Shown here piece after piece: positions 3,690-15,086 of a stretch of 64,000 nt of DNA (its first letter is position 1; the number at the start of each line of letters is the position of its first letter). Origin of the DNA: Nostoc sp. DedSLP01 (GTDB lineage: Bacteria > Cyanobacteriota > Cyanobacteriia > Cyanobacteriales > Nostocaceae); NCBI GenBank assembly GCA_034530875.2, contig JAVRCJ020000018.1, forward strand, positions 1-64,000, given 5' to 3'. Under the pieces are notes generated by a model that searched no databases, was not told the origin of the DNA, and saw nothing but the letters and a program-made list of their open reading frames with translations. The translations under genes were made by a program, and so were the position numbers.

Positions 3690-6600
3690 ATGAAACCGGA
3701 GAAACCCAAACGCAATCGCGGGCTGATACTGACTCGTGAAGGCTGGCAAAAGCTTCAGAATGCGAAACTTGAGTGGGAATTTAGGGAAAATAATGGCTCC
3801 AAATCCACTTTAGAAGAATTAAGCGAACAAGCCGGGATCACTCCTGTCACCTTAAGAAAGATACTCACTCGTGAAACTGGGGTTGACAAACGGACGCTTG
3901 TTCGTTTGTTTATGATGTTTAATTTAGAATTAGCTCAAAGTGATTATACAAGCCCAGACTCTGATTTAAAGGATCGAAAAGCCTCGAAAGTCTCCAAACG
4001 TGTTGATTGGAGAGACATGGTGGATGTATCTGTTTTTTATGGACGCACAGATGAACTGGCTATTTTGGAGCAATGGCTGTACCAGGAACGCTGTCGAGTA
4101 GTGGCGCTGCTGGGAATGGGAGGAATTGGTAAAACAACTCTTGCTGCCAAATTAGCACAAAACGTTCAAGCTAGGTTTGAATATGGGATTTGGCGATCGC
4201 TCTACAATGCTCCCCCACTTTTTGACCTGTTAGTAAATTTAATTAAGTTTTTCTCTGACGACCGGGTTTTAGAATCTGACTTAGCAAAAACTGTAGATGG
4301 CAGAATCTCACAACTGATTGAATATTTACAACAACAGCAGTGTCTAATCGTATTAGATAATGTAGAGACTATTTTGCAAACAGGTGCTTATGCTGGATGT
4401 TATCGACAAGGCTATGAGGATTACGGTTTACTAATTAAACGATTGGGGCAAGTCATGCATCAAAGCTCCTTGGTGCTGACTTCACGCGAAAAACCCAAAG
4501 ACATAGCCTTACTCGAAGGAGAAACACTGGCTGTTCGCTCGTTGCAACTCAATGGTTTAGAGGTAGTTGCAGGGCAAAAAATCTTTGAAGCCAAAGGTTT
4601 TTCTGGCTCAGAGTCAGAATTACCAGCAGTAGTTGAGCGTTACGCTGGTAATGCCCTAGCATTGAAGATAATTGCGACAACTATACGAGATGTTTTTGAT
4701 GGTAATATTGCGGAATTTCTGCAACATTACACCGCTGTTTTTGGTAATATTCGCGATCTGCTAGACCAGCAGTTTTCGCGCTTGGCAAATTTAGAGAAAG
4801 ATATAATGTACTGGCTAGCAATCAATCGCGAGCCAGTTTCGCTATCAGAAATACGAGAGGATATTGTATCACCAATTCCACCACAAAATTTACTCGAAGC
4901 TCTGGAGTCTTTGGTAAGGCGATCTCTAATCGAGAAGGCTTCGCCTACGCTAGTTGAGAAAAACACACCACTCTTTACGCTGCAACCTGTAGTCATGGAG
5001 TATGTGACTCAGCGATTAATAGAGATAGTTTGTCAGGAAATTGAAACTCAGAATCTCGATCTGTTTAGGTGTCATGCCCTCATAAAGGCGACAGCAAAAG
5101 ACTATGTAAAAGAGATTCAAATTCGCCTCATCCTCAAACCAATTATAGATGGGTTGCTCGCTGTCTTAAGAAGCAAAAGAAACCTGGAAAATCAACTGAC
5201 TCAAATTATCGCAAGGCTACAAGAAACATCACCTCTAGAACAAAGTTATACAGCTGGGAATATTCTTAATTTGCTTTGTCATCTAGAGACCGATCTTAGT
5301 GGCTATGATTTTTCTCATCTCAGTATTTGGCAAGCAGACCTGCGGAATGTGAAATTGCACAATGTAAATTTTAAAAACGCCAATTTTGATAAGTCTGTTT
5401 TTACTGAAACCTTTGGTGGCGTTATGTCGGTAGCCTTTAGCCCTGATGGGAAACTTTTGGCTTTGGGTGATACCAATAGTGAGATTCGCTTGTACCAAGT
5501 TGCAGATTGGAAACAAATTTTTACTTGTAAGGGACATAGCAACTGGGTTGTGTCACTTGCTTTTAGTCCTGATGGCAAAACTCTTGCCAGCGGTAGTGCT
5601 GACTCTACTGTGAAACTGTGGAATATCATTACAGGTGAATGCATCCAAACCTTTAGAGAACATAATAATACTGAAGTTTGGTCGGTAGCTTTTAGTCCGG
5701 ATGGTAACACCCTAGTAAGTGGCAGTAATGACTATCTGGTGAGGCTATGGAATGTTAGCACTGGTGAATGCCTGAGAATTTTTCGGGGGCATACAAGTTG
5801 GGTAATCTGTGTGGCCTTTCATCCGGATAGTCAAACGCTGTTAAGCGGCAGTGATGATGATACGATTAGATTGTGGGATGTTAGGACTGGTGAATGCCTG
5901 AAAGTTTTCCAGGGTCATCGCGATGGAATACGGTCAATCGGTATTCATCCTGATGGTCGCACAATAGCCAGTAGCAGTGATGACCAAACAGTGAAGTTAT
6001 GGTGCTTGAACGCTGGTGAATGTATCAAAACTCTACAGGGGCATTATGCCACGATCTGGTCAGTTGCCTTTAGTTCTCAAGGTAATCTCATCGCTACCGG
6101 CAGTCACGACCAAACAGTAAAGGTATGGAATGTTAATACTGGTGAATGTATTAAAACTCTTCAGGGTCATTCTGGTTGGGTGTTTTCCGTTGTTTTTAGC
6201 AAGCAAGGGGATTTTCTTGCCAGTGGCGGTGATGACCAAACAGTGAAGATATGGAACGTTAACACTGGCGAATGTCTAAAAACTCTCAGCGGATATACTA
6301 GTCAGGTTTGGTCAGTTGCTTATAATTTGGATGGTTGGATTTTGGCAAGTGGCAGTCACGACTGCATAGTAAGGTTGTGGAATGTCAATACTGGTCAAAC
6401 CTTGCAAACTCTGCAAAGCCATCGTGCCCCAGTTCGAGCGGTTGCGTTTAGTCCAAATGGTCAAAGACTGGCAAGTGGTAGCGACGATCGAACGGTAAAA
6501 TTGTGGAATGTTAATACAGGTCAAGCCTTACAAACTTTCCAGGGACATCGCGCTCTAGTCTGGTCAGTTGCGTTTAGTCCAGATGGTCAAATACTGGCAA

Positions 6601-7274
6601 GCGGCAGTGGAGATCAAACAGTAAGGTTGTGGGATGTTAATACGGGGCAAGCCTTGCAAACTTTCGAGGGACATCGTGCTGTAGTCCAATCAGTTGCTTT
6701 CAGTCCTCAAGGAAAAACCCTAGCGAGTGGCGCTTGGGATCAGACAGTCAAGCTGTGGGATATTAGTACTGGTGAGTGTAAAGGAACATTACAGGGGCAT
6801 AAGAATTGGGTTTGGTCAATTGCCTTTAGTCCAGATGGTCAATTGCTAGCAAGTGCCAGCTACGATGGAAAAATCAGGTTATGGAATATTAGTACTGGTA
6901 GCTGTCTTAAAACTTTTGAGGTTTGTGCGAATGGTATCGTTAAAGCAGTCATCTTTAGTCAGGACGGTCAGACTCTAGCCAGTAGTAGTCCCGATTACAC
7001 AGTAAAATTATGGGATGTGAATACAGGCGAATGCAAAAAAACATTGCGCGGACATTCAGCTTGGATTTGGTCAGTTGTCTTTAGCCCTGATAATCGAACT
7101 TTAGCTAGCAGTGGTGCTGATGAAACAATTCGACTTTGGGATCTGACTACAGGTGAGTGCTTAAGAACCTTAAAAGCTGAAAAATTCTATGAAGGAATGA
7201 ATATCACGGAGATTACAGGCTTAACCACAGGAATCATTGCGACACTGAAAGTATTAGGGGCTTGTGAAAAATAA
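3690..7274 (+). CDS. HTH-NB-ARC-pentapeptide-WD40 STAND protein (1194 aa)
   Basis: N-terminal XRE-like HTH (TLEELSEQAGITPVTLRKIL), Walker A GMGGIGKT, Walker B LIVLDNVE, GNALAL, pentapeptide segment, ~14 WD40 repeats. Confidence 0.95.
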   Translation: MKPEKPKRNRGLILTREGWQKLQNAKLEWEFRENNGSKSTLEELSEQAGITPVTLRKILTRETGVDKRTLVRLFMMFNLELAQSDYTSPDSDLKDRKASKVSKRVDWRDMVDVSVFYGRTDELAILEQWLYQERCRVVALLGMGGIGKTTLAAKLAQNVQARFEYGIWRSLYNAPPLFDLLVNLIKFFSDDRVLESDLAKTVDGRISQLIEYLQQQQCLIVLDNVETILQTGAYAGCYRQGYEDYGLLIKRLGQVMHQSSLVLTSREKPKDIALLEGETLAVRSLQLNGLEVVAGQKIFEAKGFSGSESELPAVVERYAGNALALKIIATTIRDVFDGNIAEFLQHYTAVFGNIRDLLDQQFSRLANLEKDIMYWLAINREPVSLSEIREDIVSPIPPQNLLEALESLVRRSLIEKASPTLVEKNTPLFTLQPVVMEYVTQRLIEIVCQEIETQNLDLFRCHALIKATAKDYVKEIQIRLILKPIIDGLLAVLRSKRNLENQLTQIIARLQETSPLEQSYTAGNILNLLCHLETDLSGYDFSHLSIWQADLRNVKLHNVNFKNANFDKSVFTETFGGVMSVAFSPDGKLLALGDTNSEIRLYQVADWKQIFTCKGHSNWVVSLAFSPDGKTLASGSADSTVKLWNIITGECIQTFREHNNTEVWSVAFSPDGNTLVSGSNDYLVRLWNVSTGECLRIFRGHTSWVICVAFHPDSQTLLSGSDDDTIRLWDVRTGECLKVFQGHRDGIRSIGIHPDGRTIASSSDDQTVKLWCLNAGECIKTLQGHYATIWSVAFSSQGNLIATGSHDQTVKVWNVNTGECIKTLQGHSGWVFSVVFSKQGDFLASGGDDQTVKIWNVNTGECLKTLSGYTSQVWSVAYNLDGWILASGSHDCIVRLWNVNTGQTLQTLQSHRAPVRAVAFSPNGQRLASGSDDRTVKLWNVNTGQALQTFQGHRALVWSVAFSPDGQILASGSGDQTVRLWDVNTGQALQTFEGHRAVVQSVAFSPQGKTLASGAWDQTVKLWDISTGECKGTLQGHKNWVWSIAFSPDGQLLASASYDGKIRLWNISTGSCLKTFEVCANGIVKAVIFSQDGQTLASSSPDYTVKLWDVNTGECKKTLRGHSAWIWSVVFSPDNRTLASSGADETIRLWDLTTGECLRTLKAEKFYEGMNITEITGLTTGIIATLKVLGACEK

Positions 7275-7288
7275 CTCAAATCGAATAG

Positions 7289-7373
7289 ACATCTCCAAAA
7301 AAAATGTGGAGACGTAGCAATGCTACGTCTCTACAGTGTTTTCGGGTAACGCAGAATTAATTTTTGGAGATGT
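7289..7373. repeat. Miniature inverted-repeat element with internal REP-like palindrome; probable bidirectional terminator
   Basis: Ends ACATCTCCAAAAA...TTTTTGGAGATGT enclose the palindrome GAGACGTAGCA-A-TGCTACGTCTC, and it lies between convergent genes. Confidence 0.7.
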
Positions 7374-7381
7374 GTAATCTA

Positions 7382-7561
7382 TTAAAAATCAGCAATGTCG
7401 AGGTCGCTGGGTAATCCTTGTGGAAATTCCTTGATTATAATGTTTTCCAACTCAATCTCCGTATCATTTAACACTTCTAAGCTGCTTTCAATGACGCTGC
7501 TAGGAAAATAGTTAAGGTTTAAAGATTGCTCGTCAATAGGTGTAGTTGCGATGGTATTCAT
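7382..7561 (-). CDS. Unannotated 59-aa acidic peptide (MNTIATTPIDEQSLNLNYFPSSVIESSLEVLNDTEIELENIIIKEFPQGLPSDLDIADF)
   Basis: Hand-translated. AAGGAG RBS 6 nt before the ATG, TAA at 7382-7384, ~100 nt downstream of the HO-like gene on the same strand. Just below the ORF-track size cut-off. Confidence 0.7.
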   Translation of the reverse strand: MNTIATTPIDEQSLNLNYFPSSVIESSLEVLNDTEIELENIIIKEFPQGLPSDLDIADF

Positions 7562-7662
7562 GGTTTTCTCCTTGTAATTGTTCGGAATTGTACTGTTGAA
7601 GTTGTATTGGATGATGTCTCGTTGGTTGTTGGGTTACTGTACGAACAGTTAATAACCAACTC

Positions 7663-8496
7663 TTAGTTGTAGTTTTGTATAGGCTCTAGTAGTTGCAACG
7701 GTTTCAATACATTTTGAATTTCCTCATCTGATATGTAGTCTTCTTTCGGTGGGCTAAAGCGCAACAATGCGGCTTTGTGACAAGCTTTTGCCACACGGAT
7801 CTGCTCCTTGGGAGTAAGTTCTGCAATCATCTCAACCGCCTCCTGTACGTGCTCTACGTCAGTACCAACAGCACTGTGTACGCGCAAGCAACGAGTGGCA
7901 TTTTTTCCCACCAATAACTCTATCCTCTGGATGTATTCCAATCCTCTGCATATCGCTAGGCGTTCGGCCGTATAGGAATAACCTACGCAATCAATTGGAT
8001 CTGAGTCTTGTACAGTTCGGGTAAAGTGATCTACTAAAGCTTTTGCAACTGGAGGAACAAGCACTTCCACAACTGCTTGAGCTTTATATCCCATCGACTG
8101 AATATCCAGCAGAGCAAGTCGATCGTGACCTGCTTCCTCTCTGGCTTTTTTTACAGCCCACTGCGCCAAACTCTCGCGGTCTGCTAAAGCAAAGCCTTGG
8201 GCAGCTTCTTCCATCAGCTCTGGGGTGGAGTGACACAGATGGTAAAGACCTGCGAGCCGCCATACCCATCGTATGGGGGTTAAGGCTGGTGGCGTGCGGT
8301 CTATTTTTACTGTATGCCAAGCAGATACGATCGCCCGATCTAAAAGTTTCTGAGTTTGAGCTATCTTCTGGGCATGGCTGATGCCACCTTTTGCAGAAAT
8401 GGATTGATGCCTTTGAGTGCAGTTAGCAGCCTCGATCGCTGTTTCATCAGGTAAAAAAGACGCTGGGTTGGTTTTAATCAACAAGTCATTACGCAT
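7663..8496 (-). CDS. Heme-oxygenase-like diiron oxidase (iron-containing redox enzyme, CADD/PqqC/TenA fold)
   Basis: Metal-ligand pattern REEAGHD ... YSYTAER ... RVHSAVGTDVEH, matching the E/H/E/H/D/H set of HO-like diiron enzymes. Confidence 0.75.
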   Translation of the reverse strand: MRNDLLIKTNPASFLPDETAIEAANCTQRHQSISAKGGISHAQKIAQTQKLLDRAIVSAWHTVKIDRTPPALTPIRWVWRLAGLYHLCHSTPELMEEAAQGFALADRESLAQWAVKKAREEAGHDRLALLDIQSMGYKAQAVVEVLVPPVAKALVDHFTRTVQDSDPIDCVGYSYTAERLAICRGLEYIQRIELLVGKNATRCLRVHSAVGTDVEHVQEAVEMIAELTPKEQIRVAKACHKAALLRFSPPKEDYISDEEIQNVLKPLQLLEPIQNYN

Positions 8497-8699
8497 AGTT
8501 CGTTTCCTAACTTACGTTTGCTACAGAATTGGGCAAGTCACTCGTGTCAATAATAGAGTTGTTGCTAAATAACTCATGAAATCCAACTACAGTAAGGATT
8601 TCGCCAACGATCAAAATGTAGACATTACACTCTTTGAGCTATTTGACGCTTTATTAAGCGACAATTCCAAAAATTGCCAGTCAAGAATGCTATGAGAAT

Positions 8700-8732
8700 G
8701 CGATCGCCTACGGCGGGCGGTTACGCCATCGC
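8700..8732. repeat. Small dispersed repeat at a HIP1 site
   Basis: GCGATCGC-CTACGGCGGGCGGTTACGCC-ATCGC: a GC-rich mini-element attached to HIP1, like Nostoc small dispersed repeats. Confidence 0.55.
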
Positions 8733-9687
8733 ACTTACCGAAATACTAAATACATATTGCATTTCTATATCTTTCAGAACCTTGACCACCGCCTTGGCGA
8801 TCGAGACATGGCTAATTTGCTGACTTCCTTTGAGAAACACAATATCCAACTGTGAGTTTCACTGGACGTTTACAAGCAAACAGGTAATTAAAGATGACTT
8901 AGATAGCGATAAGATCCCATACCCTTAGGACTTATGTATTGACAGAAACCTAATTGACAAACGGCTTCATTCGTGTATAAGGTTTATGGAAACTAACAGG
9001 AAGCTTTTATTGTATAACTAACAAATCAATTGTTCAGAGGATGTGTTTCATAACCATCCTGCACATTTAATTAGAAGCAACGCTCATTTCGCTCGAAATA
9101 GTGTCAAACAAAGTCCAAACTGCCCTTTAGTTGCAGTGCTGGTGAAAGAAGCAAAGCATGGGCGCTGTCATCTGTCTTCCCTATTGCAAACCCGCGTCAT
9201 CAGGGAACTTTACTTGGACTGGGAGAATTAGAAGTAAATACTCCTGCATTTCTTATCCTGTCAAAGTGCCTTGCTGGTACTCAAAACCGTTCGGTAGGAG
9301 ATTCAATCTGCAACCCAAGGAGGTTATCCAGAGGTAATGGAGACGAATCTAAAGTTTCGCAGCATTACTGGTTGCTCATCTTACGCACCCTCATCTACGT
9401 GGTTGATTGACTGATGCCTCTTGCAGTTAAGTTTGCTAAGTTTACAAAACTTTTGCAACTCAAGATAAGAAACTTAAGATAAAGATAAGTTCTTTTTTTG
9501 CTGTGGCATTCTCCGCTTCAAGTTTAAAGTTGCACAAACAGATATGCTATTTAGTCTAAAAAGCTTGCTAGGTAAGCAATAGCGCGATTTCAGGTTTGAA
9601 GAAACTAGATCTGTAAAAACAAGTTTGGCAAAGCATAACATCTTAGTGCAGCTTTGCATAAGTGCTTAGGAAATTAAATTTGTTAAG

Positions 9688-9848
9688 AGGATGTTTGAAA
9701 AGTCCTATTGTTGGTAGCCAAACACTCTAGATCTCCCTAAATCCCTCTTAAAAAGAGGGACTTTGATTCTGGTTCCCCCCTTAAAAAGGGGGGTTAGGGG
9801 GGATCTAGAAACGCGTAAAATTACAGCCAACCACTTTTCAAACAACCT
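9688..9848. mobile_element. MITE-like element
   Basis: 16-bp terminal inverted repeats AGGATGTTTGAAAAGT / ACTTTTCAAACAACCT (1 mismatch) with internal CCCC-TTAAAAA-GGGG hairpins. A related right end occurs at ~53663-53679. Confidence 0.75.
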
Positions 9849-10886
9849 GTAAGACTATGCCCTATCTTGGGCTTATTTTGCATCCTCACCCTACCTTACC
9901 TACGAGATACCAGGGCGAACAGAAAGCAAGCTCAACGTCTTGTTTGCAACTTCTCTGTAAGTTTAAATTTACACGACTCAGATCTGATTTGTAAAGAAAA
10001 TCTTAAGGAAATCCAATTTATTGCTGGGCATAACTTTCAGAGAATAAACTCTTGAGAAGGCTGCTTTAAATAACGGGTTGCTTGAGGATAGTACAAGATG
10101 CAAATTTTAGCAAAGTTAGCAAAATCTATTATTTACATTTACGATCGCCTAAAAACCGCTTCAGTTGGTATTTTGCCTACAATCTAACTGAAAAACATAA
10201 ACTTTTCGGCTTAAGTTTTCTATCTTAACTGGTTAAAACCAATCTTGAGATAGATAATTTTACGCAAAGCCCTTGAGAGAAGTACCCACTCTCAAGATCT
10301 GCGATCGCTAACTTACTCGGTTATATCCCCCAATTCATGCACCGGGGGCTTTTCCCTTTAATTTCCGTGGCTGCTATATGTAAACATTCTGGACAACAAC
10401 CTTTTTGCTTTTGGATTCCTTTTTAGTAAAGAGCATACCCTTAGCAAAATCTTAATTTTTTTTACAGTATATTAAGTCTCAGAATAAATATCATAATAGT
10501 GCTTCCAGGAAAACAAATTAAAACTTTGTAAAAAGTTTTTTTATCGGTATTGATGTTTTGATAGCCAGCCCTTTCAATCTGGTGAAATTCATCCTGATTT
10601 TTTCAGTTTCAAGCCTTATTACACATCGATTTAGTGTTAACGCCATCTAAAAAATCAGATGCCGCACAGTCAAGATAAAAAAGTTATTAGCTTTATAACT
10701 CTTTGGCATCTTGCCCAGTTGTCAGCTTGACAACTAGCTTTATGAAAGCTCCCCCACGTTAATACTAATTCAAGATAAGGTTGCACACAAAAACTGGTTA
10801 GCCAAACTCCTCTAAAAAAGGATTATAGGCATTCGCGATCGAGTGCATAGACAGAAAAAATGGGTTGAAGATTGTAGAGGGTTGAA

Positions 10887-11453
10887 ATGATGAAGCGAAC
10901 TAACTACTACAACGATCTGTTAGCAGATTACTCTAAGCCAGAGCTAGTTTCTCATGAGCTAGGTGTAAAACTACTCACAGATGCAGAAACATATATTTCT
11001 CTACGTGAGAATACTTTACCTGAAATAACTCTAGAATACAGTTTACAGCAAGTAGAGCAGGAAAATAAACATTGGTGGCCAACCCACTGCGAAGCACTAC
11101 GACAAGGGCGGGGGGACATTTTAGCAGGCGAATATGTCAACCAACTTGTATATTTATGTGCTGACGGGCCTTTTTATGGCAGAACCGCAGCAACAAATAG
11201 AGAAGTAAATCGATGGGCAATTCTTGCTCAACCAAGTGTAACGATAGCTTGGCCAATTATTATGTTCAATGGTGAAGTTATCTACTCTGAATGGAATTGT
11301 TTTGATGACGAAACAAACGAACTCATTGCCAAGGGAAACGAAACTTTGCTTCGACGAGGACATCGAGGTGCGTGTTACTTAAAATGCGAACAATTTAGTT
11401 TTTACCGTGACGTTTATGCCTCTGATGAATTGCTGCATTGGATCCGGCTTTAA
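10887..11453 (+). CDS. Hypothetical protein, probable NTF2/SnoaL-like fold
   Basis: 188-aa ORF with RBS. The pattern EALRQG...EY...YLCADGPFYGR...EVIYSEW resembles SnoaL-like domains (inference). Confidence 0.6.
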   Translation: MMKRTNYYNDLLADYSKPELVSHELGVKLLTDAETYISLRENTLPEITLEYSLQQVEQENKHWWPTHCEALRQGRGDILAGEYVNQLVYLCADGPFYGRTAATNREVNRWAILAQPSVTIAWPIIMFNGEVIYSEWNCFDDETNELIAKGNETLLRRGHRGACYLKCEQFSFYRDVYASDELLHWIRL

Positions 11454-11638
11454 CTAAATTAGCGATCGCTGAATATTTATAAATAAATGAAGGAGGAATA
11501 TAGCATTAAGCCAAATAATTAATTTTCGGAATTTTACTGAAACTTGGCATCAAAGGAGAAATATTTAGACTCAACTCTAGTTTAGATAGTCTGAGATGGA
11601 ACCAAGTGTGTTTAATACAATGTAATGAGGCTAAAGTG

Positions 11639-12310
11639 ATGGAATCTAATTACTTATTAAATGGCATTGACTCTTATAACGTTAACATCGCTATTAATAC
11701 AGCGATACTGACAAGTTTTGAAAAGTTCCTGCTTCAGTCCCAACCTTTGTTAAGTCATGTTTTTCGATTTATTGAGACAAATTATCATAATTCAATTAGT
11801 CTTAGAGAGGTGGCTGAGGCGGTTAGTCGGTCTCCTGCCTACCTCACCGACCTTGTACGGCGAGAGACTGGAAAAACCGTACTTTGTTGGATTGTTGAGC
11901 GTCGGATGGTAGAAGCACGCCGTCTACTTATCGAAACAGACCAGTCAGTAGAGCAGATAGCTGAAGCTGTCGGCTATCTGGATAGACGCCATTTCGGTCG
12001 CCAATTTCTCCGGCTCCACAATACAACCCCGCAAACATGGCGAAAGTCCCATCGCAGTAAGAACATCCCATGTTGGCAAAGAGTGCCACAAAAGACAAGC
12101 TCAAACGAATTAATCGCCCAGGAAACCACAACTGTGAGTTTTGCAGAAGCTCAACGGTTACAAGCATGTATCCAAGAGATTGCTGCAATTTTTAGCAAAA
12201 GTACTATTGCTAATGAAGTACTTATGTTAAAAAGCGAAAATGGTTCTGTTGCAAAAATAGACAATGGTTTGATACAGATAACTTTAGTTTCAAATCCCGA
12301 ACCGTGTTGA
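11639..12310 (+). CDS. AraC-family transcriptional regulator (paralogue 1)
   Basis: ISLREVAEAVSRSPAYLTDLVRRETG...SVEQIAEAVGYLDRRHFGRQF...TPQTWR double HTH. ATG 11639 chosen by alignment with the paralogue. Confidence 0.9.
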   Translation: MESNYLLNGIDSYNVNIAINTAILTSFEKFLLQSQPLLSHVFRFIETNYHNSISLREVAEAVSRSPAYLTDLVRRETGKTVLCWIVERRMVEARRLLIETDQSVEQIAEAVGYLDRRHFGRQFLRLHNTTPQTWRKSHRSKNIPCWQRVPQKTSSNELIAQETTTVSFAEAQRLQACIQEIAAIFSKSTIANEVLMLKSENGSVAKIDNGLIQITLVSNPEPC

Positions 12311-12864: not shown

Positions 12865-13335
12865 ATGAGTACTAATTTAATTACTGCCATAATTAATAAC
12901 AATCTTAAAGAGGCTAAAAAATTAATTGAAACTGGCGTAAACGTTAACCAAACAGACAGCAGTGGAAATAGCCTCTTGATTGTCAGTTCTGCTAACGGTC
13001 AATCAGAAATGGTGAAGTTACTACTTGATGCTGGTGCTGATATTCACGCGGTTGACTCAAATATGAAAGCTACTGCACTCCATGCCTCTGCCTATTTGAG
13101 ACATCCAAAGGTCATGAAAATTCTGATTGAATACGGGATTAATATAAACGCTCAAGGGCCTTATAACGGATATACTGCCCTACACGATGCAGTTTGGCAG
13201 AATAATATTGAAGGAGTCAGGCTGCTGATCGACGCGGGTGCTCGCTTAGACATCAAAGCTAACAACGGAGACACTCCTTTAGATATTGCCAAAAAAAGTG
13301 GGCGTAAAGAAATTGTTGCTATGCTTTCTAATTAG
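12865..13335 (+). CDS. Ankyrin repeat protein
   Basis: Repeats GNSLLIVS, ATALHASA, GYTALHDAV, GDTPLDIA. Confidence 0.92.
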   Translation: MSTNLITAIINNNLKEAKKLIETGVNVNQTDSSGNSLLIVSSANGQSEMVKLLLDAGADIHAVDSNMKATALHASAYLRHPKVMKILIEYGININAQGPYNGYTALHDAVWQNNIEGVRLLIDAGARLDIKANNGDTPLDIAKKSGRKEIVAMLSN

Positions 13336-13493: not shown

Positions 13494-15086
13494 CTAAAAC
13501 TCCATCGCTTGATTGACATATATTTCAATATCTTTACCTGCGTGCAAAAACCAGATATTAGTACGTTGCATCCTGATTTTAGAGATAGCCTGTTGATTTC
13601 GCTGAAAAATTGTAGGAAGTACAGTTTTTATCCCGCCTTCTACCAAACCTGCTAATGTGTTGCCTCTTGGGTTGTCGCTGGTGTATTGTGTGCCGTTAGT
13701 AGTTATGGTGGTTTGGGAATCAGTACGATTAGATAACTCTGCGGCTTTACTAGCACCACCTAAAAAAAATAGTCCTACATCAATCCCAGCAATCGACGAT
13801 CCTCGTTCGGGAAATTGGTCGGCTATTAAAGGTTTTCCTTGGGGAGCGCGAATAACCATAGCATTTTGCGCTAAGCTTTTTTGTGTGAGAGTGCGATTAT
13901 TTTCTAGAATGACTTTGACTACATCCAGCTTTAGTAAACCCTGTTGAGAAATAGAACGAATTTTAATTAAAAACTCAGTGTTAGCAGGTAAAGCGATCGC
14001 ACCATCCACAGATTTTAATGGTTGTTTCAATCGCCCAACAAATACGTTATTGTTATCGTCTTGATTATTGTTAGTTTTTGCTTTAGTAGTTTCCCCAAAC
14101 ACAGCTGTTGCTAATACAGCTTTAACGCTGGTTCCCGCTGGTACCAATTTTGGCTTTGATGATTGTACTTGGCTCACTATCGAAGTTGTCAGCGATTGGA
14201 TTTGGTTAGGATTAGAATTTGGTATTTGTCGTACCACCTGGATATTTTTAATAGGTGGATTGGTAGCAATTCTACTATTAGGTTTATCAGTGATATTTAC
14301 CTGACCATAACTACCTAACTTTGCTAATCTTTTCCATTCCTGGATTGGGTTTGGTGTGGGTGATGGAGTAAAATCAACGACTGATTGATTATCTGGTTTG
14401 ATAGCTGGTAACTGTGAAGGTTGAGGTACTTGTTTAACTGTGACTATCTCAGGCTGAAAAACTGTTTGTATAGGTGTTCTTTGCAGTGTGATTGGCTGTT
14501 TACTTCTAGAATCACCTGACGATTTTACATCTGAAGTGGCTGTAAGCTGAGGAAGCTTTAATTTTTCACTTTTAAGGTTTTTTTGTGTGGCTTCGATTGA
14601 TTCTGCTTGTTGAGTCAGGGCTAATTTTGTTTTCAAAATTTCTATTTCTTCTTCTAGCTCTTGAGAAGTGGATGCAGTAGTTAATTGCGATCGCCCTTGT
14701 AAGACAACAATATTATTTTTTAGCTTTTGACTGCTAGCATTCATCAGCTGGAATAAAAACCCAGCTGTTAACAAAACTATAGCTAAGGTAGCAGTCCCTA
14801 CTAAACCTAACTTAGCAAATCGATTAGACAAGAAGAATTCTTGAGCCTCAAGTTCTTGCGATTGGGAAACTGACTTTTCTAAAGTAATAGTGTCTTCTAA
14901 AGCTGGAACTTCAATAGCATGGCATTCTTCTGCCAAGCCAACCAACCTTGCGATTTGTGATTCCCAATCTAAAGATTCTACTTCTAGTGGAGGTTCATCC
15001 GAGTTTAAAGATGATAAATTTTGTGCAGAAATTTTTGAACTAATTGAATCTTTAACTATTGTATAAATTGAGGTTTGATTTTTCAT
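13494..15086 (-). CDS. TrbI/VirB10-like membrane protein
   Basis: One TM helix, coiled coil, Pro/Gln-rich linker, and C-terminal VPAGTSVKAVLAT...LKQPL...ALPANT...AGKDIEIYVN beta domain typical of cyanobacterial TrbI/VirB10. Confidence 0.7.
   Translation of the reverse strand: MKNQTSIYTIVKDSISSKISAQNLSSLNSDEPPLEVESLDWESQIARLVGLAEECHAIEVPALEDTITLEKSVSQSQELEAQEFFLSNRFAKLGLVGTATLAIVLLTAGFLFQLMNASSQKLKNNIVVLQGRSQLTTASTSQELEEEIEILKTKLALTQQAESIEATQKNLKSEKLKLPQLTATSDVKSSGDSRSKQPITLQRTPIQTVFQPEIVTVKQVPQPSQLPAIKPDNQSVVDFTPSPTPNPIQEWKRLAKLGSYGQVNITDKPNSRIATNPPIKNIQVVRQIPNSNPNQIQSLTTSIVSQVQSSKPKLVPAGTSVKAVLATAVFGETTKAKTNNNQDDNNNVFVGRLKQPLKSVDGAIALPANTEFLIKIRSISQQGLLKLDVVKVILENNRTLTQKSLAQNAMVIRAPQGKPLIADQFPERGSSIAGIDVGLFFLGGASKAAELSNRTDSQTTITTNGTQYTSDNPRGNTLAGLVEGGIKTVLPTIFQRNQQAISKIRMQRTNIWFLHAGKDIEIYVNQAMEF

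Follow-up and report, generated by a model that had tools for sequence, protein, structure and literature searches.

The first 64,000 nucleotides of contig JAVRCJ020000018.1 of Nostoc sp. DedSLP01 (assembly GCA_034530875.2; this whole stretch is referred to as the window) carry a gene for a heme-oxygenase-like (HO-like) enzyme of the type found among HO-like dimetal oxidases (HDOs), which is followed on the same strand by a very short gene for an acidic peptide, and both face a convergent gene for a large STAND protein. The original prediction, made from the sequence of the window, had interpreted the enzyme and the peptide as a candidate two-gene module, either of the RiPP type (a peptide made by the ribosome and modified after translation) or consisting of an enzyme and its partner. 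The features on which our analysis is centered are the following:

7663..8496, minus strand: HO-like (HDO-type) enzyme gene, 277 aa
7382..7561, minus strand: acidic-peptide gene, 59 aa, ATG start, absent from the annotation track
7573..7568, minus strand: Shine-Dalgarno sequence AAGGAG of the peptide gene, 6 nt before the ATG (7561..7559)
3690..7274, plus strand: convergent HTH-NB-ARC-WD40 STAND gene, 1194 aa
3..2915, plus strand: another STAND paralogue from this clade, upstream of the first as a tandem copy, truncated at the contig start and 61% identical over residues 223-570

The short open reading frame (ORF) of 59 codons, which had been noted as missed by the annotation track and as lying about 100 nt behind the enzyme gene with an AAGGAG ribosome-binding site (RBS), was found as described at 7382..7561(-), with a gap of 6 nt between RBS and start codon and a spacer of 101 nt between the end of the enzyme ORF and the peptide ATG. 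Its translation, MNTIATTPIDEQSLNLNYFPSSVIESSLEVLNDTEIELENIIIKEFPQGLPSDLDIADF, contains 12 Asp and Glu residues, a single Lys and no Arg, in agreement with the very acidic character and the C-terminal end that had been claimed for it. A scan of one genome per species for relatives of the enzyme yielded 21 loci with enzyme identities of 54-85%, and a tblastn search with the peptide gave a match directly downstream of the enzyme gene in all 21, the frame being interrupted by a stop in one of them (L025). In the relatives GGAG precedes the start of 17 of 24 peptide genes, with frame and stop retained, and the changes at the three codon positions between the window and L005 (6/6/15) illustrate that in close pairs the third position changes most. 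Since a homologous ORF occurs at the same place in 21 of 21 loci, GGAG is kept in 17 of 24 genes and third-position changes are in excess, the ORF is far beyond what chance would produce and, judged by these sequence comparisons, is a real and conserved gene. That the frame is open by mere chance, within the untranslated region 3' of the enzyme gene, might have been argued from its absence in the annotation track and from the lack of any matching model in Pfam and NCBIfam, but this view is refuted by the conservation of the protein across Nostocales and across records named Pleurocapsales or Chroococcidiopsis, in which start, RBS, frame and stop are kept, by the third-position excess, and by the gene calls that already exist for many homologues in public records. 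With a profile built from 24 peptides, 198 clusters at 90% identity were retrieved, whose source names belong to Nostocales, Pleurocapsales and Chroococcidiopsis and which are all annotated as 'hypothetical', and the same profile run against 1.84 billion proteins yielded 90 representatives at 50% identity. These span 44-146 aa, excepting two long proteins (464 and 1005 aa) that were judged to be chance matches, as they are repetitive and match only over a stretch of 12-18 residues. Within its own genome the peptide matched only itself, the next matches having E values of 0.5 and 2.2. In addition, a metatranscriptome contig of 1978 nt from a relative that is about 88% alike covers positions 7381-8572 and thereby both genes, which gives a weak hint of their expression and not more, because such a contig does not prove a single transcript and DNA can contaminate RNA libraries.

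The HO-like nature of the enzyme, as originally proposed, was supported by agreement between a structure-profile comparison and a fold search, despite a match to Pfam PF14518 (Haem_oxygenas_2, 'iron-containing redox enzyme'; E 1.8e-5) that reached 25.1 bits against a gathering cut-off of 28.9. A precomputed PF14518 match is present in some of the close relatives (84-76% identical), the enzyme carries no Pfam domain beyond this one, and NCBIfam returned a weak match to the CADD family. When a profile of 20 enzyme sequences was compared with known structures, it matched PDB entry 3dde, an HO-like fold of unknown function, with E 1.9e-13, aligning the motifs E-E-A-G-H, A-E and H...D-x-K-H-x-E-E, and the same profile reached only E 0.74 against the HDO acetylenase MboA. 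An AlphaFold2 (AF2) model of the enzyme is an all-helical bundle, in keeping with the seven-helix HO-like fold of HDOs, with a predicted local distance difference test score (pLDDT) of 74.5 and a predicted template modelling score (pTM) of 0.72, and its top Foldseek matches were 3dde, UndA, a TenA homologue, a CADD-like Nostoc protein, BesC and CtCADD (probability 1.00, template modelling score ~0.5). Ten positions, H86, E121, G123, H124, D125, E178, R179, H207, H216 and E219, are invariant in the alignment of 20 sequences, and position 213 is Asp or Glu in all 20. The resulting ligand-like pattern, E121-x2-H124 ... E178 ... H207-x5-(D/E)213-x2-H216, would make E121, H124, E178, H207, D213 and H216 the candidate metal ligands, with H86, E97 and E219 also conserved, and it resembles the 3-His/3-carboxylate motif on the core helices that defines the HDO superfamily, in which core helix alpha-3 is described as flexible (PMC13108848). 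By sequence and model the enzyme looks like an O2-activating dimetal HDO, and it is probably a distant member of that group. Two conserved segments, PPALTP.RWVWRLAG.YH (residues 69-86) and a C-terminal extension FSPPKE.YISDEE.QNVLKPL, are candidates for peptide-binding pieces; we know of no counterpart of either. Altogether 578 relatives of the enzyme were found, some of which are annotated by JGI as 'PqqC', and the ESM Atlas held only clusters of the enzyme's own kind, with PF14518 on 25-36% of the members. The enzyme is patchy in the phylum (4 of 401 sampled genomes), and in a set of 61 genomes, with one genome per genus except in the window's own genus, at least 11 carry it, as counted from the STAND-derived loci plus G164.

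The peptide gene adjoins the enzyme gene in 21 of the 21 loci of this collection, including L025 with its stop, and among three further enzyme loci two have a separate peptide gene while the third encodes an enzyme–peptide fusion. Moreover, a peptide gene was present in all 11 enzyme-bearing loci that were reached independently from the STAND genes. A conserved small ORF beside homologous enzymes, which had been set beforehand as a check of the original prediction, was hence present at every locus examined (21, 3 and 11), and these sequence data show that the enzyme and peptide genes are bound together in evolution. In the fusion (genome G164, L032:1501-2547) the stop codon of the enzyme gene has been lost and the spacer is read through, so that enzyme and peptide form a single ORF of 348 aa; the corresponding protein cluster comprises 5 member sequences on 7 contigs, with Gloeotrichia echinulata as source name. 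An AF2 fold of this natural fusion had a mean pLDDT of 53, with 29-50 in the peptide part, and was too poor for docking to be read from it; only 11 rows of the alignment covered the enzyme part, in which the C-terminal 15 residues of the enzymes had been misplaced by MAFFT. In that alignment (A7, columns 324-340) MAFFT placed the enzyme C-terminal EE.QNVLKPLEL against the leader block of the peptide (ESSLEVLNDTEIELE), which may be due to chance or may reflect mimicry of the leader by the enzyme tail. Several genomes contain more peptide genes than enzyme genes: two peptide genes accompany one enzyme gene in L016, three peptide genes occur with two enzyme genes in L022, and three identical tandem genes for a 66-aa peptide, with a period of 239 nt, lie behind one enzyme gene in L060:2104-2782 (genome G438). 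Such multiple copies fit a consumed substrate better than a subunit in 1:1 proportion. Within 6 kb on each side, the only genes common to the loci are those for the enzyme, the peptide and the STAND protein, and the earlier statement that no protease or transporter is adjacent was found to extend to the loci as a whole, as neither is conserved there.

The 59-aa peptide of the window consists of a variable N-terminus, a conserved block SLEVLNDTEIELENIIIKEF, a GLPSD motif and a 6-residue tail LDIADF. Across the family, Thr, Ser and Gln abound in a variable N-terminal half, with an internal repeat in some members (for example TATVIDxQS, which occurs twice); an acidic, helix-like block of the form (S)LE.L.D.E..LE.IM..EF is conserved, and it is followed by G-L-P-S-D, of which G and D are invariant in a 24-row alignment. 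A loose form of the motif fits 181 of 204 distinct peptides, and these were used for the analysis of the tail. The tail has 6 residues in 114 of them, 5 in 65 and 4 in 2, its final residue is F, L, M, I, Y, W or V in 176, and 120 different tails occur, which fall into the classes IPMADF/W/L, TEFGxM/F/L, T/NP.PFF/W, LDxADF, IDGSDV, ISNxΦ and LDNPF. In 158 pairs (not independent of one another) whose 30-aa block is at least 90% identical, tail identity averages 68%, and in the closest pairs the block before the tail is 92% identical compared to 68% for the tail. Likewise, the first two paralogues in L022 have 37 of 40 residues in common in the leader and 1 of 5 in the tail, their tails being IDSPW and VNNCL (counted by hand from the alignment). 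The comparison of these sequences indicates that the tail evolves faster than the block preceding it, with a variability that is moderate and not extreme.

Peptides of the family fall into length classes of about 47 aa (source names from Pleurocapsales), 57-76 aa and 85-89 aa. About 40 of the 181 peptides, those of 85-90 aa, begin with a hydrophobic signal- or anchor-like segment (MRFRILDFGFSILVWLGLGSAYEAV...), as do variants of 99 aa and 145 aa; examples are L015:7148-7414, L017:6805-7068, L018:6798-7061, L021:4534-4794 and P0123-P0150 among the long class, and L052:2144-2581 and L061:2619-2918 among the further variants. The window's peptide lacks such a segment. The DNA of the hydrophobic segment resembles short Nostoc repeats. 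An in-frame insertion of a repeat element was nevertheless rejected as the sole explanation of this extension, because a strong RBS precedes the long start (in L015, L017, L018 and L021) and the segment is retained at the protein level in about 40 distinct long forms. The hydrophobic N-termini hint that some peptides of the family leave the cytoplasm, which would suit a signal.

Regarding the function of the pair, we give an approximately even chance to the 59-aa peptide being the substrate of the neighboring HO-like dimetal oxidase. Enzyme and peptide would then constitute a minimal cassette, either RiPP-like or of the sacrificial-peptide kind, in which the enzyme would grip the acidic helix-like block as a leader by means of many invariant Arg and Trp residues, while the tail, at its fixed distance from GLPSD, would reach the dimetal site, where O2 would be used for its oxidation. 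The C-terminal residue or its carboxylate would be the most likely target, because the distance between GLPSD and the free C-terminus is fixed. Two points further favor oxidation at or near this residue: UndA ligates the carboxylate of its substrate to Fe1 (PMC13108848), and the last residue of the tail is nearly always hydrophobic and has its carboxylate free. By analogy, an UndA-like oxidative decarboxylation, a desaturation, a hydroxylation or the excision of a fragment as in CADD can be guessed at as candidate reactions; CADD-type HDOs cut protein-derived residues, which are Tyr and Lys for the self-sacrificial CADD itself (PMC13108848).

An alternative that has to be weighed against the same data is that the peptide is not a substrate but a partner of the enzyme, that is a regulatory, gating or inhibitory subunit comparable to MMOB or to an antitoxin, while the enzyme acts on a free small molecule. 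The strict adjacency of the two genes and the single fusion would suit a subunit no less than a substrate, conservation within the peptide is highest in the helix-like block and not in the tail, and no protease or exporter is conserved at the loci. Furthermore, the reaction is known for only about a dozen HDOs, and apart from VarO the substrates of these validated enzymes are free metabolites or residues of the enzyme itself (PMC13108848). A partner role fits less well, however, with two to three peptide gene copies per locus in three genomes, with a peptide length ranging from 44 to 146 aa together with a very variable N-terminal half, and with the peptide matching no Pfam or NCBIfam family; a gating function would also leave the fixed tail of 5-6 residues with its hydrophobic end unexplained. 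On balance we consider a non-substrate partner unlikely.

The convergent gene at 3690..7274(+) encodes the domain order that had been assigned to it. Its product has a weak XRE-like HTH_3 match (E 0.0046, residues 40-81), an NB-ARC NTPase domain with its P-loop (E 2.7e-11, residues 124-227), a short pentapeptide stretch and, in the C-terminal part, 14 WD40 repeats (WD40 E 1e-171), and NCBIfam gave a weak AfsR match over the NTPase (E 3e-4). The proposed co-occurrence of enzyme and peptide with an HTH-NB-ARC-WD40 protein was observed as well: a STAND gene converges on the peptide gene within 6 kb downstream in 20 of 22 loci, the window included, and in 17 of these 20 the first 530 STAND residues are 49-88% identical to those of the window over their full length. 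Partial matches were obtained in L005 (86% over residues 325-530, the locus ending inside the gene) and L025 (72% over 36 residues); L014 has no STAND gene and in L016 the contig ends. Other DNA lies between the peptide and STAND genes in L017, L020 and L025. Trees of the enzyme and of the STAND protein have their main clades in common and disagree in some places, for example for L018. Tandem pairs of the STAND gene were also seen in L006, G404 and G405. According to these gene comparisons, the enzyme–peptide pair occurs in many cyanobacteria and usually faces an HTH-NB-ARC-WD40 gene.

A second view of this association was obtained from the 3' DNA of 20 of the best-matching STAND genes in other genomes, two genes with a tandem STAND copy downstream having been skipped. 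Enzyme and peptide genes were present in 11 of these flanks, one was cut by the contig end, and 8 contained neither. In 7 of these 8 the STAND gene faces a convergent gene for a KASIII-like enzyme accompanied by a short-chain dehydrogenase, a GDSL hydrolase or an O-methyltransferase (L048, L049, L055, L057, L059, L064 and L065), and 5 of the 7 cassettes also include a thiamine pyrophosphate (TPP) enzyme in the stretch that was fetched; genes for a PhyH dioxygenase and a TnpB-like protein were seen beside the eighth. The window's own genome contributes a further example on contig 29 (L026: 243-4049 and 4340-7885), where the genes convergent to a STAND paralogue encode a TPP enzyme, a KASIII-like enzyme and a methyltransferase. 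Since 11 flanks carry the HO-like pair and 7 of the 8 others a KASIII-like cassette, a single STAND clade recurs beside one or the other of two small biosynthetic cassettes, and the KASIII-like cassette together with its STAND protein could be a second conserved module. As a side observation, the N-terminal HTH module of the STAND protein (window 3690-3970, residues 1-95) also heads proteins of 470-510 aa at 36-44% identity (own contigs 36, 4, 12 and 45; L027-L029). The body of the one that was scanned, L027, is AAA_35 ('AAA-like domain', E 1.5e-142); the same HTH head on a STAND and on an AAA_35 protein therefore represents one DNA-binding head on two kinds of NTPase.

That the STAND protein regulates or senses the enzyme–peptide cassette is a tentative proposal to which we assign somewhat less than an even chance. 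Most simply it would be the transcription regulator of the cassette, or alternatively the receptor of its product, and the occurrence of STAND paralogues in the same position beside another cassette would be as expected for pairs of signal synthase and receptor or for cluster-situated regulators of the AfsR type. An extension of the substrate reading, compatible with it, would be a complete signal-receptor circuit, in which the enzyme matures or tags the tail, and the STAND protein detects the released tail with its WD40 propellers and then switches transcription by means of its HTH domain. An NLR-like receptor would here follow the logic known from RRNPP systems or LuxI/LuxR. The architecture of an HTH domain, an NTPase switch and a repeat sensor is indeed receptor-like, the discrete classes of short tails follow the enzyme and STAND clades, and many family peptides have an N-terminal hydrophobic signal-like segment behind a strong RBS. 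In addition, the sister STAND paralogues are paired with KASIII-like cassettes, and KASIII-like enzymes make small signals elsewhere. However, the window peptide and about half of the family are without a hydrophobic N-terminus, no exporter or protease is linked, sensing by WD40 is purely inferential, the genes converge instead of forming a divergent regulator-target pair, and a cluster-situated regulator that senses something else would explain the synteny equally well, so that we regard the circuit as distinctly unlikely. Still more speculative, and in our estimate very unlikely, is a generalization in which an NLR-like receptor family of filamentous cyanobacteria has each of its members wired to a ligand-making cassette, a lone HDO oxidizing the peptide tail to products in discrete 'pherotype'-like tail classes that are read by WD40, with the KASIII/TPP cassettes as a sister branch; if true, it would add a class of enzyme to those known from RiPPs and would provide a bacterial NLR whose signal is endogenous.

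The three genes might instead form a STAND/NLR-type conflict system, directed against phage or leading to cell death, in which WD40 senses the invader and the HO-like enzyme is an effector that the peptide checks or aims. A role in conflict is widely attributed to the NB-ARC/WD40 proteins of multicellular cyanobacteria, with HTH domains among the possible effector modules (PMC7159879), and both the patchiness of the enzyme (4 of 401 sampled phylum genomes) and the multi-copy, diversifying STAND genes would be in keeping with such a role. On the other hand, a PADLOC scan of the three proteins gave nothing above noise: the best STAND match (IetA, E 1.9e-4) covers a P-loop stretch of 38 residues, the next (7.7e-4) is likewise confined to the P-loop, and there was nothing for the enzyme (E 0.015) or the peptide. 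The N-terminus of the STAND protein is an HTH domain and not a killing domain, the alternative STAND partners are ordinary biosynthetic enzymes, and no phage or mobile genes consistently flank the module. PqqC, TenA and heme oxygenase do not appear in the main text of PMC7159879. A conflict system appears very unlikely.

Returning to the interpretation of the peptide as substrate and of the STAND protein as its regulator or sensor, a number of observations weigh against it. The enzyme of the window falls under the Pfam gathering cut-off for PF14518, and region 181-212 of its model, which holds H207, has low confidence (pLDDT <50), and the candidate ligand set is read from alignment columns; by analogy, low confidence around H207 fits the flexible alpha-3 helix of HDOs, although this is no proof. 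The fusion occurs in one lineage only (1 of 29 matches), and the conserved surroundings of the enzyme–peptide pair include no protease, no transporter and no recognition domain of the RRE type. The tail is only moderately variable, IPMADF alone accounting for 20 of the 181 peptides, unlike the hypervariable cores of many RiPPs, and the correspondence between tail classes and enzyme clades is equally well explained by shared descent. As regards the STAND protein, its relatives are widespread, being present in 46 of 61 genomes of the family, and numerous, up to 18 copies having been counted, and this gene often occurs without the enzyme–peptide pair, and the contig 29 paralogue of the window's own genome (C29) nests among the module-linked STAND proteins yet has no enzyme or peptide gene beside it. 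Because the family is far wider than the pair and close paralogues face other cassettes, the STAND protein is not a dedicated part of the module in the strict sense. The original proposal of a two-gene RiPP or partner module facing STAND proteins was partly supported: the conserved pair and its co-occurrence with the STAND gene were observed, and the fusion, the tandem copies and the faster evolution of the tail fit a precursor that would be bound and modified by the enzyme.

Further features of the locus are non-coding elements on either side of the pair and neighboring genes beyond it:

8497..8580, minus strand: non-coding stretch, conserved, directly upstream of where the enzyme gene starts, TTATTTAGCAACAACTCTATTATTG.CACGAGTGACTTG.CCCAATTCTGTAGCAA...
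7305..7335, between the converging units: G+C-rich hairpin with T runs on both strands, 14-pair stem on the plus strand and 10-pair stem on the minus strand
11606-12310: AraC-type regulator, neighbor not conserved with the module
12865-13335: ankyrin-repeat protein, neighbor not conserved with the module
13494-15086, minus strand: TrbI-like conjugation protein, neighbor not conserved with the module

The block at 8497..8580 is nearly invariant in the window and L005-L008, with L005 diverging further upstream, and is only loosely kept in more distant loci; it is a likely promoter, operator or 5' leader. By a consensus scan only, the hairpin at 7305..7335 appears terminator-like in both directions. 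An Rfam scan of positions 6500-11500 gave no match, and a sigma-70 scan of 7100-9000 was uninformative (1 site compared to 3.9 expected). Upstream of the enzyme, about 2.3 kb (window 8581-10886) contain no ORF of 100 aa or more and no Rfam match and carry typical short cyanobacterial repeats, and a similar gap is present in L005 and L007 before a common gene of 188 aa (window 10887-11453; no Pfam match). The TrbI-like gene hints at a mobile or integrated element nearby; a comparison of shared neighbors within 6 kb on each side revealed no phage or mobile genes that flank the module consistently.

If the peptide is indeed the substrate, the enzyme–peptide cassette would represent an undescribed kind of ribosomal-peptide pathway, and a two-gene unit of enzyme and substrate, with a natural fusion and about 200 natural tail variants, would offer a tractable entry to dimetal chemistry on peptides. 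The pairing of one STAND clade with either of two cassettes leads to the hypothesis that the NB-ARC/WD40 proteins of multicellular cyanobacteria may regulate small biosynthetic cassettes or sense their products. To our knowledge these abundant proteins have so far been without a function.

Among known systems the HDOs (UndA, BesC, CADD/PabS, SznF, AetD and MboA) share with the window enzyme the helical HO-like fold, and the invariant E-x-x-H ... E ... H ... (D/E)-x-x-H residues of the latter, as a candidate ligand set, resemble theirs. The sequence similarity to characterized HDOs is, however, marginal (MboA E 0.74; PF14518 below cut-off), and the spacing of the candidate ligands, H-x5-(D/E)-x2-H, differs from the H-x3-D-x2-H of UndA and CADD. 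In contrast to HDOs acting on free metabolites, the window enzyme has a ribosomal peptide as its obligate neighbor and possesses an extra C-terminal extension. A precedent is provided by VarO of the thiovarsolin pathway in Streptomyces varsoviensis, an HO-like protein acting in a ribosomal-peptide pathway, whose deletion removes a desaturation which its authors termed new RiPP biochemistry (PMC6511847). According to its description VarO is nevertheless set apart as an accessory enzyme of an actinobacterial YcaO/TfuA thioamide cluster with a repeating precursor, whereas in the window no enzyme other than the HO-like one accompanies the peptide, the host is a cyanobacterium and the precursor is unrelated. 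In the full-text literature searched, VarO was the only HO-like enzyme found tied to a ribosomal peptide, and no account of a cyanobacterial HDO with a peptide of its own was found there, most subscription journals being outside this coverage, so that earlier work is possible. With respect to the genomic criteria for RiPPs, the cassette shows adjacency of the precursor gene, a leader/core pattern and several precursor genes in some clusters; a leader peptidase, an exporter and an RRE domain are absent from the shared genes within 6 kb and from the Pfam matches of the enzyme.

Ribosomal peptides serve as scaffold or source of small products in the formation of pyrroloquinoline quinone (PQQ) from PqqA, of mycofactocin from the C-terminal Val-Tyr of MftA, and on pearlin-type scaffolds. 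These pathways, as well as CADD/PabS, resemble the window pair in having a short peptide, a conserved recognition part and a short C-terminal reactive end; moreover, PqqC belongs to the same fold superfamily as the window enzyme, and the natural enzyme–peptide fusion would be a self-contained version comparable to the self-sacrificial CADD/PabS. In contrast to PQQ and mycofactocin, no radical-SAM enzyme, PqqB/D/E, peptidase or ligase is linked at loci of the window type, and the tail of the window family is not invariant, unlike the reactive residues of PqqA and MftA. PqqC is also cofactor-less, whereas the window enzyme keeps a candidate metal-ligand set.

The STAND protein can be compared with AfsR/SARP-type regulators, with which it shares a DNA-binding domain, an NB-ARC switch and C-terminal repeats as well as a position beside small biosynthetic cassettes, here of two kinds, and with RRNPP systems, which likewise have a small peptide gene as neighbor and class-specific C-terminal residues. 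Its HTH domain is, however, XRE-like and not a SARP winged helix, the genes converge, and its sensor would consist of two WD40 propellers in place of the TPR repeats of AfsR and RRNPP proteins. RRNPP receptors, moreover, have no NTPase, and their pro-peptides are not modified by an oxidase. An NB-ARC/WD40 protein accompanied by a small neighboring gene in filamentous cyanobacteria is also reminiscent of conflict systems and of the bacterial NLR-associated amyloid signalling (BASS/Bell) pairs, in which an NLR protein occurs with a small neighboring gene (bioRxiv 10.1101/2020.01.06.895854; PMC7159879). In BASS pairs the end of the small partner and the N-terminus of the NLR have a short motif in common, and the genes are co-oriented. 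The window differs from BASS in the HTH at the STAND N-terminus, in genes that are not co-oriented and in an oxidase-type enzyme as partner, and no short motif common to the peptide and the STAND N-terminus was seen by eye, no formal motif search having been made. If both the chemistry on the peptide and the NLR-like sensing hold true, the novelty of the locus would go beyond that of a variant of the HDO and RiPP systems already known.

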